Source: a virus. From it: a stretch of 64,000 nucleotides of DNA. Numbering within the stretch: position 1 is the stretch's first letter; every line of letters starts with the position of its first letter. This document shows positions 40,302 through 60,961 of this stretch, one piece after another. The stretch lies in the IMG/VR virus record IMGVR_UViG_3300027631_000002, positions 64,001-128,000 of that record. One strand, 5' to 3'. Under the pieces are notes generated by a model. The model saw only the letters and a program-made list of their open reading frames with translations. It did not search any database and was not told the DNA's origin. Position numbers and translations under genes: made by a program.

Positions 40302-41633
40302 ATGAGTAAATTAGTTACCTTAAATGGTATAAATGATGAAGAACTATTAAATTCTTTATTTAGTAATGAAATATCTATTATAGAAGATATACAAGGAAGT
40401 AAAATTTGGGTTAATTGGAATGGTAAAGAATTCACGATTAAAACAAAGAGTATTTCAAGTGAGCCAATCAATCTTATAGATTTAGCAATGCAGAATTATT
40501 ATAATCCTGCAATTAATTATTTTAACTCTTTAGATAGTAGAGTAAAATCATTGTTAAATAGAAAGTGGTGGTTTTGTTTTGAGTATTTTCCAGACGAGCA
40601 ACCTGCTAATATAGAGTATAATAGAGTTCCTAAGAATAAATTGGTTTTAACAGCTATAAATAAAGCAGGTAAATATGAGTTTTTTTTAGAAGAATTAAAT
40701 GAATATGCAAGACTTTTTGATGTTGAGATTATACCAGTTGTTTTTCAAGGAAAACTAACTGATAAGATGATTGAGGCAATTAAATATTTTTTAAATACTA
40801 GTGAAGAAGATTTAGATTATATTTTTGGTGAAAAGTCATTTACATTTTTCTTTTATAAGATATTAAATCCACTTTCGGAAGGTTCATTTTTAATGGATGA
40901 TGATTTTCAAAAGAATATTGAGAAATTGATTATTAGAAATAACTCGGATGATATGTCATTTGAATTATTAAATCCTTTATATACAAGACTAGGTGAAAAT
41001 AATGATACTGAGTTTGTTGAGATATACACATTGATATTGATAAACTTTTTAAACTTCTGTCAATCTGTTGATTTGAAAGATATAAAGTTAAAAGGTTCAT
41101 CAAAAGATGAAATTTATATCTATTTAATATGTAAACTTTATAATATATATATTAGTGAAGTAAAACAGGATCTATTAGACTTTGATTTTGTAGTACCAGA
41201 ATTTTTTGATAAAGATAAATTTAAAATAAATACAGAACTTATTCTAAATAAAGTAACTAAAGAATATTTATCAGAGTCTGAAAAACTTGAATATATTTTC
41301 AAGGTTATTCTTGGTTCATTTAGTAAGAAAAGAAAAAAAGCAATTGGTATATTCACTGATAATACAGTAAAACTATTCAATAAGTTTATTGATGATATTG
41401 AAGATCATATTGGAACTTACTTACAAAGAATTAGTGAGATAGAATTGACGAGAGCGGGTTTATTAGATTTTGGAGACTTCTTTGATATTCAATATGATGT
41501 TGATGGAGAGGGAGAAGTTTATCCAGATGTTTACTCTGAATTTGAAAAAGGAGTATCAAATGATAAAAAGAAAAAGGGTAAGGGTGGTAAAATGCCAATA
41601 GAACCAATAAATACAACAAAAAAACCCATATAA
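40302..41633 (+). CDS. RNA ligase (Rnl2)-fold protein with degenerate catalytic motif
   Basis: EDIQGS at the position of motif I EKxDGS, FCFEY, IIPVVFQG, IEKLIIR. Confidence 0.5.
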   Translation: MSKLVTLNGINDEELLNSLFSNEISIIEDIQGSKIWVNWNGKEFTIKTKSISSEPINLIDLAMQNYYNPAINYFNSLDSRVKSLLNRKWWFCFEYFPDEQPANIEYNRVPKNKLVLTAINKAGKYEFFLEELNEYARLFDVEIIPVVFQGKLTDKMIEAIKYFLNTSEEDLDYIFGEKSFTFFFYKILNPLSEGSFLMDDDFQKNIEKLIIRNNSDDMSFELLNPLYTRLGENNDTEFVEIYTLILINFLNFCQSVDLKDIKLKGSSKDEIYIYLICKLYNIYISEVKQDLLDFDFVVPEFFDKDKFKINTELILNKVTKEYLSESEKLEYIFKVILGSFSKKRKKAIGIFTDNTVKLFNKFIDDIEDHIGTYLQRISEIELTRAGLLDFGDFFDIQYDVDGEGEVYPDVYSEFEKGVSNDKKKKGKGGKMPIEPINTTKKPI

Positions 41634-41645
41634 TAATGGGTTTTT
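41618..41645 (+). terminator. intrinsic terminator
   Basis: AAAAACCCAT-ATAATA-ATGGGTTTTT. Confidence 0.8.
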
Positions 41646-41658
41646 CTAATATAAAAAT

Positions 41659-41880
41659 ATGAAAGAAATAAATTTAAAAACAAAATCGATCAATGTTGAA
41701 ACAAAGTCAAGACAACTTAAATGTGATTATTCTAGAGAGTTGGTTAAAGATCTTAATTCTTTCCATAATATTGATGTAGAGGCAGAATTAGTAAGACTAT
41801 TAGATAGTGAAATTAAGACATCAATTAGGAAACAAAGTAGAAAGAAAAAAATTGAAAATTTAACGAAACATACTGACTAA
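41659..41880 (+). CDS. mini-protein homologous to a segment of the T4-type major capsid protein
   Basis: VETKSRQLKCDYSRELVKDLNSFHNIDVEAELVRLLDSEI versus recalled T4 gp23 IEAKSRQLKAAYSIELAQDLRAVHGMDADAELSGILATEI. Confidence 0.8.
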   Translation: MKEINLKTKSINVETKSRQLKCDYSRELVKDLNSFHNIDVEAELVRLLDSEIKTSIRKQSRKKKIENLTKHTD

Positions 41881-41892
41881 TTTTCATATAAA
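41867..41892 (+). promoter_or_regulatory. putative middle-type promoter
   Basis: AACA-N16-TATAAA before the PolA-like gene. Confidence 0.45.
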
Positions 41893-41896
41893 AACT

Positions 41897-43129
41897 ATGT
41901 ATATTGAAAATGTAATAATCACTAAAGAAAGCTCTGAAAGCGTAGCAAAACGTATAGATGATAAGTTATTTTCTCTTCAATTTTTACCAGAATGTTTATA
42001 TGGAATATCAACTATAAAAACATTAGAATTTAATAACATTAAACTTAAAACAAACTATCTAATTGATATAGTACATAATTTAATATTAAAGTATTATTTC
42101 AAAAAAGAAAACAGATTCGCTCTAAATGCGACTATTCTAAAGGATAAGTATGGTTATCTTTATAACTATTATATCAACTACTTAGTTTCAAATGGTATTT
42201 TGATACTTAAAACAAACTATCAAAATGGAGTTACATCAAGAATATATGCCTTAGATGAAAATATATTTACTCATAAAATAAAAAGATATAAAAATTTAGA
42301 TAAAGTACTTCTAAAAAAGTATAAAAATAAATTTGTTGATATGATTCATATCAATGATATTTCTAAAGTGAGTTTAATTGAACCACTTATAAAGGAAAAA
42401 TTAGTTTCTGATCTATTCAGTGTTAAAATTGAATATGATAGAGCTATTTTCTTTCTAGATTCCTTAAAACATCAAGATATAGACATATATAACAGAAACA
42501 TATACTCTGTTGATTGTATCAATGATAAACATATCTTTTATCACTTTGATGATTATGGGAGAATGCATACAAACTACACTATTCTTAAATCATTTATTAG
42601 AAAAAACTGTCTATTGATAGATGGTGAAGAAACTTGTGAGATCGACATACCTAACAGCCAGCCATTATTTCTAACTAAAATAATTGACATGCACTCTAAT
42701 CTAGTAGATCAAAAGGAACTTCTCTTATTTAAAGAACTTACCATATCAGGAACATATTATCAATATGTTATGAATCAATTAGGTGAGAGTAATAAGAAAA
42801 AGGTTAAAGAGATGACTTATAAAGTTCTTTTTGGAAGAAATATTGCTACAAGTAAAGTAGATAAAAACTTTAAAAAACTGTTTCCAACAATTCATCAGTT
42901 TATTAAAAATTATAAAAAAGAAAATGGTGATTATAGAGTTCTGGCATATGACTTACAAAAAGCAGAATCGGATTTAGTCTTTAATACCGTTATCAAGAAA
43001 GTAATGCAATTTTATCCAGAGATAAAACTAATAACAATTCATGATAGTATTGTTATACCTAGAAAATATAAGGAAGAAGTGAATCAAATTTTTGAAATAG
43101 AGCTCAAAAAAGAGTTTAACATAAACTAA
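41897..43129 (+). CDS. minimal family-A polymerase / single-subunit RNAP-fold protein
   Basis: DDYGRMH, EIDIPNSQP (motif A), KVKEMTYKVLFG (motif B), TIHDSIV (motif C); no exonuclease motifs seen. Confidence 0.7.
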   Translation: MYIENVIITKESSESVAKRIDDKLFSLQFLPECLYGISTIKTLEFNNIKLKTNYLIDIVHNLILKYYFKKENRFALNATILKDKYGYLYNYYINYLVSNGILILKTNYQNGVTSRIYALDENIFTHKIKRYKNLDKVLLKKYKNKFVDMIHINDISKVSLIEPLIKEKLVSDLFSVKIEYDRAIFFLDSLKHQDIDIYNRNIYSVDCINDKHIFYHFDDYGRMHTNYTILKSFIRKNCLLIDGEETCEIDIPNSQPLFLTKIIDMHSNLVDQKELLLFKELTISGTYYQYVMNQLGESNKKKVKEMTYKVLFGRNIATSKVDKNFKKLFPTIHQFIKNYKKENGDYRVLAYDLQKAESDLVFNTVIKKVMQFYPEIKLITIHDSIVIPRKYKEEVNQIFEIELKKEFNIN

Positions 43130-43883: not shown

Positions 43884-44660
43884 TTATTTTATATGAAACC
43901 ACATAATTCTATTTTTTAGACTCGGTGTTTCTTTCATAAAGTATTTATCTTCATTAAGTGACTTTATTACAAATAGTCCATCTTCTTGACCACCATTTAT
44001 ATCGGCTCTTAAAACAATAAATTTATCTTTTGAAATTATATTTGATTCAATTAAAGTATAATTTGTTGAAATTATAAGTTGTTTATCTCCATAAAAATAT
44101 TTTGATATAGTTTCTGGATGTGCTAATAAAGTAGTTCCTGGACCACGTCTATTATTTACTGCAATATAATTACCACACATAAGTAATTTAGACATAATTT
44201 TTCTTTGACTATATTCAAAGTTTTCTCTAGAAGTTTTATCAGGATCATTAGTTAGAGTTAAATCAAATGATGACATTCCACTTTTTAAAACAGGTTGTCC
44301 TTGTGTAAATTTTTCCATATAGTTTAATAAATCTGTATGTAAATCTTCATAAGATGTAAAGGATGTTTCTTGTACAGTCATTGAAAATATTTTTGGACCA
44401 ATAGTCTGTGTAAAGTTACCGTCTAATATTGGAAGATCTACTCTACTGTTCCAAGTAGATTCTTCTTTTTCACCAGTTACAATATCAATGGCTAGTTCAC
44501 GATTTTTTGATTTTATCTTTAATTGTTCTTGAAGTGTATCTTCTTCTATAAAATCCATGTAAGATATAGTAGCAACAGAGCCACTATGTTGTTTTTCATA
44601 AAAATTACATAAGTATTTTATCTCCTTTTTTATTTCTTCTTCAGTTTTAGAAAGTATCAT
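43884..44660 (-). CDS. truncated major-capsid-protein paralogue (axial-domain region)
   Basis: LKSGM..FDL...RKIMSKLLMCGNYIAVNNRRGPGTTLLAHP versus recalled gp23 GKSGM...FDF...LLFQIDKEAVEIARQTGRGEGNFIIAS. Confidence 0.6.
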   Translation of the reverse strand: MILSKTEEEIKKEIKYLCNFYEKQHSGSVATISYMDFIEEDTLQEQLKIKSKNRELAIDIVTGEKEESTWNSRVDLPILDGNFTQTIGPKIFSMTVQETSFTSYEDLHTDLLNYMEKFTQGQPVLKSGMSSFDLTLTNDPDKTSRENFEYSQRKIMSKLLMCGNYIAVNNRRGPGTTLLAHPETISKYFYGDKQLIISTNYTLIESNIISKDKFIVLRADINGGQEDGLFVIKSLNEDKYFMKETPSLKNRIMWFHIK

Positions 44661-45613: not shown

Positions 45614-46192
45614 ATGGTATTTAAAGTAAGAGGTATATTAGATTTCAGTCCACAGGACAAAACTAAGAAGCATGCTAGTCAAGCTTCTTGGAAGAGAGTT
45701 GCTATGATCCGAACTGAATGTGAATTAGATAGATACTATGCTTGGTTTTTAAAGAAGAGATTTAGTCTTGAATTAAATAGTACCTTGAGAGGAACTCACG
45801 TTACTTTCATCAATGATAAAATGGACGCTAAAACATTTGAACAATTTGCACAAATCTTCAATGGTAAAGAAATTGATTTCTATGTTGAAACTGAGCCAAG
45901 AAGTAATGGTGAGCACTGGTGGTTAAGAGTTCACTGCCCAGAAGCAGAAAGTATTAGAGAAGTTATGGGTTTATCAAGAGAACCATTCTATGGAATGCAC
46001 CTAACATTAGGATATGCTCTAGTTAAATATCCAGAGGCTACTGCACTAAATGATAGTCCACTTGCAATTAAAGTAAGAAAAGATTATATAGAACATTCTA
46101 AATATATTTTAGAGTGTTGTAAAAGACACGAATTGATTTCTAATGAACCTAGAAAATCTTTAAGTGAACATGAAATAATAGAGTTTAAATAA
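45614..46192 (+). CDS. 2H phosphoesterase superfamily protein
   Basis: Two H-x-T motifs, GTHVTFI and GMHLTLG, about 70 aa apart. Confidence 0.75.
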   Translation: MVFKVRGILDFSPQDKTKKHASQASWKRVAMIRTECELDRYYAWFLKKRFSLELNSTLRGTHVTFINDKMDAKTFEQFAQIFNGKEIDFYVETEPRSNGEHWWLRVHCPEAESIREVMGLSREPFYGMHLTLGYALVKYPEATALNDSPLAIKVRKDYIEHSKYILECCKRHELISNEPRKSLSEHEIIEFK

Positions 46193-60489: not shown

Positions 60490-60855
60490 ATTTACTTAAA
60501 CAATAAAGAGCTCTATATAGAGATCATAGTGTCAAAAGCACAAGGACGACTAACAAGAAATGCGGAGAAAATGCTAGAGTTACTAGCAAAAAAGACAATA
60601 AGAAAAATGAGATACTGGTCAAATGATGACAAGTTAGATTGCTACCAAAGTGGTTTACTAGATATGTTTCAAAACTGGTTCAATTTTAATGAAGACAAAT
60701 CAATCAATGCATTTGCTTATTTTACAGAAATCTTTAAAAGAGGATTGGCTAAAGGATGGAATGACCTTTATAAAAAGAAAGGAGATAATGAACATTTAAT
60801 TAAACTTATCTCAATAAATGGTGCCAACGATGGAAATGGATTACACTCAATTTAA
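60490..60855 (+). CDS. gp55: late transcription sigma factor (gp55-like); start codon unresolved
   Basis: In-frame IYLNNKELYIEII upstream of the GTG at 60529; DCYQSGLLDMFQNWFNFNEDKSINAFAYFT parallels gp55 region 2. Confidence 0.85.
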   Translation: MYLNNKELYIEIIVSKAQGRLTRNAEKMLELLAKKTIRKMRYWSNDDKLDCYQSGLLDMFQNWFNFNEDKSINAFAYFTEIFKRGLAKGWNDLYKKKGDNEHLIKLISINGANDGNGLHSI

Positions 60856-60961
60856 TATACAAACATTTGATTTAGTCTCAGATCCGGGTTTTTCTACTGC
60901 AAATTTTTTTAATAAAAATTATATAAGAATGAAAAGAATAAGAAACTTATTTAATTTTTAG
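60836..60961 (+). CDS. 41-aa mini-protein carrying a prohead-protease-like motif
   Basis: Manual translation MDYTQFNIQTFDLVSDPGFSTANFFNKNYIRMKRIRNLFNF; ATG overlaps the sigma 3' end. Confidence 0.6.
   Translation: MDYTQFNIQTFDLVSDPGFSTANFFNKNYIRMKRIRNLFNF

Follow-up and report, generated by a model that had tools for sequence, protein, structure and literature searches.

Major capsid proteins (MCPs) are normally known as whole genes encoding the HK97 fold, and the closest described system for the small gene reported here is the T4 major capsid protein gp23 (PF07068; PDB 6UZC, 5VF3, 7VS5). According to Fang et al. 2022 (PMC9546572), P-loop contacts near the quasi-threefold axes hold the capsomers together, and the capsomers are also joined by charge pairing between an acidic short helix and a basic strand of the P domain. 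The same work placed head-length mutations in two clusters (A268, A275, D285 and D287; T457, R460 and G461), contacts with the portal whisker at H282 and M284, and gp31-bypass sites at G292, V306 and V307, in the spine helix, as well as at A455. The Gol peptide, which activates the Lit protease, lies about a quarter into gp23 and is not a separate gene.

Short fragments of proteins produced in the laboratory bind and inhibit their parent protein or its partners (Savinov et al. 2022, PMC9245647; FragFold, PMC10769210). Among natural proteins, SaPI CpmA and CpmB, P4 Sid and PICI Ccm bind the capsid protein or the scaffold of the helper phage and redirect capsid size; CpmB mimics the capsid-binding C-terminus of the scaffold and Ccm is a full-length HK97-fold homologue. 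C-terminal peptides that bind a hub are represented by the clamp-binding tails of T4 and RB69, PIP boxes, the cargo-loading peptides of encapsulins and microcompartments, and the SspB and ssrA tails.

The gene considered here encodes a 73-aa protein (hereafter mini-protein) made of two modules, a copy of gp23 from about residue 250 to 304 and a basic C-terminal tag, joined in what a structure model predicts to be one long helix. Like the laboratory fragments, it is a short piece keeping native-like contact residues; those fragments, however, are engineered and come from bacterial proteins, whereas the mini-protein is a natural conserved phage gene, whose activity is inferred. The satellite hijackers CpmA/CpmB, Sid and Ccm, being small or accessory capsid-binding proteins, resemble the role that we propose for it, but none of them is known to be a fragment of a capsid protein, as the mini-protein is. 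The Gol peptide shares with it the condition of short internal gp23 segment, has a biological activity of its own, and differs in not lying at residues 250-312. As for the tag, it is like the hub-binding peptides a short helical motif at the extreme C-terminus, common to many otherwise unrelated proteins, and its pattern (R-x-x-[KR]-[IL]-x-x-[IL]-[FL]) is not known to fit any of their consensus sequences. No description of stand-alone capsid-fragment genes was found in the literature searched, by means of limited keyword searches. We consider a stand-alone tagged capsid-fragment gene as new in kind, its anatomy, conservation and selection being shown below and its function being inferred.

The window, that is the whole stretch of DNA analysed, is 64,000 nt long and corresponds to the bases 64001-128000 of a 179,626-bp IMG/VR virus record (CheckV completeness about 30%); its G+C content is 28.9%. 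The features of the locus are collected in Table 1.

Table 1. Coordinates of the mini-gene, its parts, its neighbours and other tagged mini-ORFs (window positions unless another source is given).
Feature	Position	Strand	Basis or remark
Mini-gene, 73 aa (gp23 fragment and tag)	41659..41880	+	ORF with ATG start and TAA stop
gp23-derived module, residues 1-58 (T4 gp23 about 250-304)	41659..41832	+	Pfam, PDB, hhalign, T4 mapping
Helical linker of variable length, residues 52-60	41812..41838	+	Relatives differ by -4, +3 or +6 residues
C-terminal tag RKKKIENLTKHT, residues 61-72	41839..41874	+	Invariant columns in the family alignment
Terminator-like hairpin AAAAAACCCAT-loop-ATGGGTTTTT, closing the 443-aa gene	41620..41645	+	13 nt 5' of the mini-gene ATG
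Stop codon and 16-nt spacer, 5' of the 410-aa gene	41878..41896	+	Nearly invariant in DNA alignment A2
443-aa gene	40302-41633	+	Upstream neighbour
410-aa gene	41897-43129	+	Directly downstream of the mini-gene
258-aa orphan	43884-44660	-	Fast evolving, conserved neighbourhood
Family-2 glycosyltransferase, 242 aa	44647-45375	-	PF00535, 28.4 bits, above cut-off; overlaps the start of the 258-aa ORF by 14 nt
192-aa protein	45614-46192	+	Weak PF22547 match, below cut-off
Second basic-tag mini-ORF of the window, 47 aa, ending IRMKRIRNLFNF	60818..60961	+	Regex scan; orthologue LR745206 189488-189649
Tagged mini-ORF with DFASLYPS, 78 aa	G000:C1:55471-55707	+	8.3 kb before the window start; orthologue LR745206 83154-83393 (78/79 aa)
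76-aa ORF of G001, closely related to the window phage	L064:657-887; G001:C1:146656-146886		Tag-like FRKSKIRRLL in the middle of capsid-like sequence, not at the end

The Pfam model PF07068 (Gp23) matched the mini-protein with an E-value of 3.7e-12 and 46.8 bits, the cut-off being 24.4 bits, over the positions 131-188 only of the 376 of the profile, and PHROG 138 ('major head protein') matched it with E 6e-12. By phmmer against the PDB, residues 12-58 were aligned without gaps to residues 258-304 of T4 gp23 (E 2e-6), and hhalign of the mini-protein family with an MCP alignment headed by T4 gp23 gave a probability of 98.2% and E 3.3e-14, residues 1-66 corresponding to gp23 250-312. The similarity to gp23 is far above chance. 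A reading of the locus made from sequence alone (hereafter sequence-only reading) had considered the protein as an MCP segment aligned to T4 gp23 without gaps, and this claim held with strong significance: all the residues it listed (KSRQLK, Y, EL, DL, H, D and AEL) are present, and the gp23 sequence that it gave agrees with T4 gene 23 (NC_000866). Its assignment of the segment to a strand and long helix of the HK97 fold was right but incomplete: the strand is the basic one of the P domain, the short acidic helix of that domain is also present, and of the spine helix only the first half is included.

The mini-protein is 38-51% identical to gp23-type MCPs and keeps, as T4 gp23 does, the basic P-domain strand (K16, R18 and K21), the acidic short helix (E27 and D31), the His/Asp loop (H36, D39 and E41) and the start of the spine helix. 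Unlike T4 gp23, it lacks the N-arm, the insertion domain, the A domain and the P-loop strands, and therefore it cannot form an HK97 fold on its own; moreover, it ends in an unrelated tag and its gene stands apart from the head genes. Length also speaks against a complete HK97-type fold, the MCPs compared having 456-571 aa and the mini-protein 73 aa. The mini-protein is thus very likely a derivative of the Gp23 family and not a capsid protein. Foldseek with its model returned no match, a search which is uninformative for a single helix.

To map the fragment on the T4 structure we used T4 numbering checked on T4 gene 23 (NC_000866), with which all the residues named in PMC9546572 agree. The conserved positions of the mini-protein coincide with K262, R264, K267, E273, D277, H282, D285 and D287 of the gp23 family, H36, D39 and E41 being the equivalents of H282, D285 and D287. 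Within the mini-protein family K16, E27, D31, H36, D39 and E41 are conserved at 90-100%, R18 is R in 28 of 32 sequences and K21 alternates between K and R. Further small ORFs, described below, copy a C-terminal piece corresponding to T4 residues 436-485, which includes A455, T457, R460 and G461 (P loop). Taken together and in T4 numbering, the gp23 pieces recruited are likely to represent the inter-capsomer contact elements of the quasi-threefold axes and both clusters of head-length mutations, as well as the sites that touch the portal whisker. Part of this match is a detection bias, since Pfam favours conserved segments.

The origin of the fragment was evaluated with Smith-Waterman scores, each set against shuffled-sequence controls. 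With the MCPs of four foreign phages (LR756508, IMG/VR L010, cyanophage S-CREM2 and Acinetobacter phage ZZ1) the mini-protein scored 116-119 (z 21-25) and with T4 gp23 108 (z 19.7), against 45-46 (z 3-4) with three MCPs of its own lineage; BLASTP against its own MCP gave no alignment at E <= 100. A recent duplication of the own capsid gene was rejected on these grounds (score 46 versus 108-119 for foreign proteins), and an origin from the vertex protein gp24 was also rejected (T4 gp24, score 52, z 4.4 versus 19.7 for gp23). Five unrelated gp23 lineages are about equally close to the mini-protein, and no donor can be named. The mini-protein retains a gp23-family consensus that the Mahaphage MCP has lost. 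The own MCP keeps the same charge logic, with a basic strand and an acidic short helix.

The phage itself belongs to a lineage of very large genomes. By the protein of the 443-aa gene, the nearest GenBank phages are LR745206 (634,780 bp, 76% identity) and LR756502 (642,428 bp, 73%), followed by LR756501/3 (735,411 bp) and LR756504 (636,363 bp), with 46-49% identity. The four largest complete genomes reported by Al-Shayeb et al. 2020 (PMC7162821) measure 634, 636, 642 and 735 kb; that study placed all its largest genomes in the Mahaphage clade, and predicted that Bacteroidetes support the replication of genomes above 634 kb. The mini-gene is a real, selected, stand-alone gene of a Mahaphage-type huge phage lineage, having LR745206 and LR756502 as nearest relatives, and the hosts of this lineage are predicted to be Bacteroidota.

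The evidence for a gene of its own is the following. Searching among proteins of 40-128 aa only, we found homologues in at least 74 clusters, 64-81 aa long (nearly all 69 or 73 aa), with 63-95% identity and a Pfam Gp23 match in all of them, several being on contigs of 350-650 kb. The order 443-aa gene, mini-gene, 410-aa gene was identical in all the nine loci in which both flanks were present, namely five viral contigs (L004-L008), two metagenome loci and two GenBank genomes, while one further contig (L009) stops after the 258-aa gene. The dN/dS ratio of the mini-gene was 0.10-0.37 in 15 of 15 pairs, compared with 0.01-0.08, 0.04-0.10 and 0.02-0.06, respectively, for the 443-aa gene, the 410-aa gene and a neighbouring 179-aa gene, and its dN was about 5-10 times that of the neighbours; in L004, for instance, the mini-protein is 78% identical and the flanking proteins are 98.6% and 97.3% identical. 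Selection on the mini-gene is purifying, yet the gene evolves faster than its neighbours, which could reflect relaxed constraint rather than an arms race. The start codon and the first six residues are invariant in the family alignment.

We also searched the window by tblastn with five MCPs (the own one and those of LR756508, L010, S-CREM2 and ZZ1), and matches were obtained inside the mini-ORF only, with no capsid homology in the flanks in any frame. A decayed capsid pseudogene with pieces in other frames was rejected on this basis. A capsid protein split over the 242-aa ORF, the mini-ORF and the 258-aa ORF was rejected as well, the first being a family-2 glycosyltransferase and the match of the last being weak. 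The only full-length Gp23-family gene of the record (568 aa) lies 29 kb downstream of the mini-gene, outside the window, and the complete relatives have one such gene apiece. Upstream, the hairpin that precedes the ATG has a deltaG of -10.9 kcal/mol (z -3.5, RNA fold), is the one terminator-like site of a pattern scan in which 0.1 was expected, and shows compensatory stem changes in the relatives L006 and L009. The claims of the sequence-only reading that the gene starts right after a terminator, is far from the head genes and is an independent gene instead of a broken capsid gene all held, the last on the absence of flanking homology, the 74 clusters, the synteny and the dN/dS. It had also declared that near identity to the genomic capsid gene would refute it, which was not the case. 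What it missed was the near-invariant tag at the C-terminus and the sister mini-ORFs copying other pieces of gp23.

The tag is the best-conserved part of the mini-protein family, above the capsid-like body: 11 of its 12 positions are invariant in 32 of 32 aligned sequences, and T72 is S in a single row. The AlphaFold2 model obtained with the family alignment has a mean pLDDT of 70, with residues 1-25 disordered, two short helices, and a long helix over residues 40-69 (pLDDT 81-90) that runs from the spine-helix homology through the linker into the tag. That the tag is helical, as predicted by the model, and conserved at the protein level independently of the body is very likely.

A similar tail is carried by two other mini-ORFs of this record. 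In LR745206, the tail regex gave 20 matches in 3,711 ORFs, 16 of them no more than 12 residues away from a C-terminus, always in ORFs of 35-83 aa. With the broader pattern given above we obtained 91 C-terminal versus 14 internal matches in LR745206, and 14 C-terminal and 3 internal matches in this record, whose codon-shuffled controls gave about 1.3 C-terminal matches. The second module of the mini-protein is probably the basic version of a tag that ends about a tenth of the ORFs of the phage, the tag being acidic on the larger proteins (median 105 aa) and basic on the mini-ORFs (median 46 aa). Precisely, the RKKKIENLT of the mini-protein fits the broader pattern at 8 of 9 positions, with T in place of F/L, and passes the looser regex and not the strict one; the tail of the LR745206 orthologue (RKESINKIF) also passes the looser regex, and the strict regex is passed by the C-terminal-fragment ORF at 255010 (RKRKIENIF) and by the polymerase-like (PolB-like) ORF of G000 (RKRKIRNIL). 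Pfam searches on 39 larger tagged proteins, made in order to obtain a clue to the protein reading the tag, gave no match. In four ORFs of 219-536 aa in LR745206 (332300-332968, 499590-500288, 338501-339160 and 120830-122440) the tag matrix matches very strongly at internal positions, one example being YLRDIKINQILE at residue 54; such ORFs may be fusions of tagged units or mis-joined.

Some simpler accounts of the tail were considered and discarded. The tag could be the detached end of the MCP spine helix (ISKQIVNKIF in the own MCP, IRKxKIxKIF in the tag), but among 143,884 internal windows this site ranked only 315th with the basic matrix and 5,196th with the all-tag matrix, and weight-matrix ranking led us to reject this origin. 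Conservation of the tail merely as promoter of the next gene was rejected as the sole cause, because the tail of the 78-aa ORF is encoded with different codons and stands before a terminator and a convergent gene. A mobile cassette made of the fragment and the 410-aa gene was rejected, other tagged mini-ORFs having unrelated neighbours, and so was TATAAAAA-N-ATG as a common start motif, whose one match equals the chance expectation. A box overlapping the stop codon of the mini-gene (TAATTTT[CG]; TAATTTTC in the window and TAATTTTG in 4 of 5 relatives) lies 11 nt 5' of the next ATG, and resembles a Bacteroidota -7 promoter box (TAnnTTTG) that would serve the 410-aa gene. This promoter-like box may add a constraint at the DNA level to the 3' end of the mini-gene.

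Searching the complete relatives with the Gp23 model, we found further small ORFs, each with a basic tail of this kind. The syntenic slot is occupied by a 61-aa ORF in LR745206 (Pfam Gp23 E 5.7e-3) and by a 53-aa ORF in LR756502, and in both the strand motif is retained while the helix is lost (Smith-Waterman z 6-10 against huge-phage MCPs). Elsewhere in the same two genomes there are helix-only ORFs of 67 and 70 aa (Gp23 E 6.1e-4 and 1.3e-3; z 6-12 against MCPs). The C-terminal P-domain strands are copied by a 75-aa ORF (Gp23 E 2.2e-4, z 10-14), whose equivalent in G001 is a 76-aa ORF with z 14 against the MCP of its own lineage; for these C-terminal-fragment ORFs the own MCP is about as close as foreign MCPs. 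About 20 mini-ORFs were scanned and four sub-threshold Gp23 matches were obtained, hence they are not due to chance. The 50-aa and 45-aa ORFs that adjoin the C-terminal-fragment ORFs have no significant similarity to MCPs; the 45-aa one, beside the 76-aa ORF of G001, ends with RRKNKIKRLF.

Other tagged mini-ORFs gave less clear results. For the 47-aa mini-ORF of the window no parent protein is detectable and there is no Pfam match; the suggestion of the sequence-only reading that the ORF at 60836-60961 mimics a prohead protease found no support in Pfam. The 78-aa mini-ORF and its orthologue both conserve DFASLYPS, a signature of motif A of family-B polymerases, with marginal matches in Pfam (E 0.039) and to the PHROG DNA polymerase (E 0.017), and a portal-like mini-ORF was also marginal (E 0.048). 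Both these matches are merely suggestive, since chance alone should give about one such match in about 20 queries.

Our best reading of these results, to which we give clearly less than an even chance of being right, is that the mini-protein is a tagged mimic of a capsid contact surface directed against a foreign gp23-type capsid; it is inferred, with no binding, expression or phenotype data. We read the protein as a surface mimic because it keeps the gp23-conserved contact residues and because its N-terminal strand is predicted to be disordered when alone, and we favour a foreign capsid as target because canonical gp23 is far closer to it than the own MCP and its dN is raised. In this view, strand addition and charge pairing would bind the mini-protein to gp23-type subunits at the edge of their P domain, or to a protein normally reading this edge, and the tag would couple the complex to a still unknown tag reader or hub. 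The likely target would be the capsid of a co-infecting foreign gp23-type phage and the likely effect interference with capsid assembly or its redirection; there are precedents for the inhibition of a parent protein by its fragments (PMC9245647, PMC10769210). Against this reading, the own capsid is not excluded as target, as the own MCP keeps the charge logic, and some lineages can dispense with the complete module, the gene being cut in LR745206 and LR756502 to 61 and 53 aa, without the helix. A bolder version, possible and no more than that, considers the mini-ORFs as a set of tagged peptides, each with one contact element of gp23 (strand and acidic helix, spine helix, P-loop strands), that would cap, mis-assemble or tether the capsid subunits of competitors.

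Among the rivals, a factor for the assembly of the own capsid, or a minor head component at quasi-threefold positions acting in size or curvature control of a very large capsid or as cement, and loaded in the prohead, like the other tagged proteins, by the tag, remains possible. T4 mutations at homologous residues alter head length (PMC9546572), the own MCP has its basic strand and acidic short helix at the same place, and the C-terminal-fragment ORFs are about equally near own and foreign MCPs; on the other hand, the mini-protein is much nearer foreign gp23 than the own MCP, its gene lies among nucleic-acid-enzyme genes at a distance from the MCP gene, and the sister lineages do without the helix, while co-evolution with the own MCP would be expected. 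It is equally conceivable that the function resides in the tag only, the gp23 body being historical, a helical body derived from scraps of captured genes with a role unrelated to capsids. In favour of this are the higher conservation of the tag, the varying length of the linker, the approximately 91 tagged ORFs, mostly orphans with mutually unrelated bodies and no Pfam match, and the other basic-tag mini-ORFs without any detectable parent. This account, however, does not fit the conserved gp23-family residues held at 90-100% over 74 clusters, nor the recruitment of at least three different gp23 pieces, all P-domain contact elements, an outcome hardly to be expected of random scraps.

A role as immune decoy or antagonist, in which the fragment would occupy host sensors of conserved capsid-protein surfaces while leaving them inactive, the tag serving to dispose of the complex or to sequester it, is in our opinion unlikely. 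The bacterial proteins Avs7 and Dsr1 do bind MCPs, polymerases and portal-associated proteins being sensed by other families of Avs (bioRxiv 10.64898/2026.01.04.697583), the fast evolution of the mini-gene would fit an arms race, and the marginal PolB-like and portal-like mini-ORFs exist. Nevertheless, whole core folds are recognised over extended interfaces (same preprint), so that a half-disordered piece of 58 residues would be a poor mimic; a decoy should mimic the own MCP, which the mini-protein does not; and the PolB and portal matches (E 0.04-0.05, about 20 queries) do not exceed chance. Finally, we regard as practically ruled out that the ORF is the non-functional remains of a capsid gene acquired horizontally, or else a spurious reading frame lying over regulatory DNA of the downstream gene. 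Its 3' end is nearly invariant in DNA and overlaps the promoter-like box, and it evolves faster than its neighbours, but the dN/dS stays low in every pair, length and frame are kept down to 63% identity together with the start and first residues, and elsewhere tags are found with different codons and no downstream gene.

Returning to our preferred reading of a tagged mimic, the pieces of capsid protein kept here as short, selected, separate genes are those that join capsomers and set head length in T4. If capsid subunits are indeed what the fragments bind, these would be the first natural modulators of capsid assembly of the fragment type, a possible weapon between phages, and a source of peptides to probe or block the assembly of T4-type heads; if the bolder version were true, they would constitute a natural system of protein-fragment inhibitors coupled to a proteome-wide docking tag. 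The capsid fragments are also the first clients with a recognisable body for an undescribed C-terminal tag of huge phages, and offer a handle on its reader.

As regards the neighbouring genes, Pfam and PHROGs gave no match for the two flanking proteins. In a language-model atlas, the 443-aa protein, extremely conserved and present in 5 of 5 large Mahaphage genomes checked, has neighbours with PF09414 (RNA_ligase), a lead only, while the cluster nearest to the 410-aa protein is 'DNA polymerase family A palm domain-containing protein' (score 0.97). The latter protein is 86-97% conserved in relatives and contains polymerase-like motifs (…EIDIPNSQP…, …KVLFG… and …ITIHDS…). The mini-gene is thus likely flanked by an RNA-ligase-like and a family-A-polymerase-palm-like protein, on atlas leads that fit motifs read in the sequences, and the second might be a very divergent stand-alone palm-domain polymerase.

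The 258-aa orphan has a dN/dS of 0.23-0.38 and a stretch of 36 residues (…QRKIMSKLLMCGNYIAVNNRRGPGTTLL…) resembling the A-domain helix-strand of gp23-type MCPs; its pairwise E against the own MCP is 8e-5, hhalign of its family with MCPs covers 36 columns with a probability of 10.9%, and its AlphaFold2 model is unusable (pLDDT 43). The Bacteroidota-type -7 box at the mini-gene stop is consistent with the predicted host phylum. The 192-aa protein matches PF22547 (2H phosphoesterase 'Swiss Army Knife', E 3.5e-4) and, together with the RNA-ligase-like gene, could hint at an RNA-repair neighbourhood.
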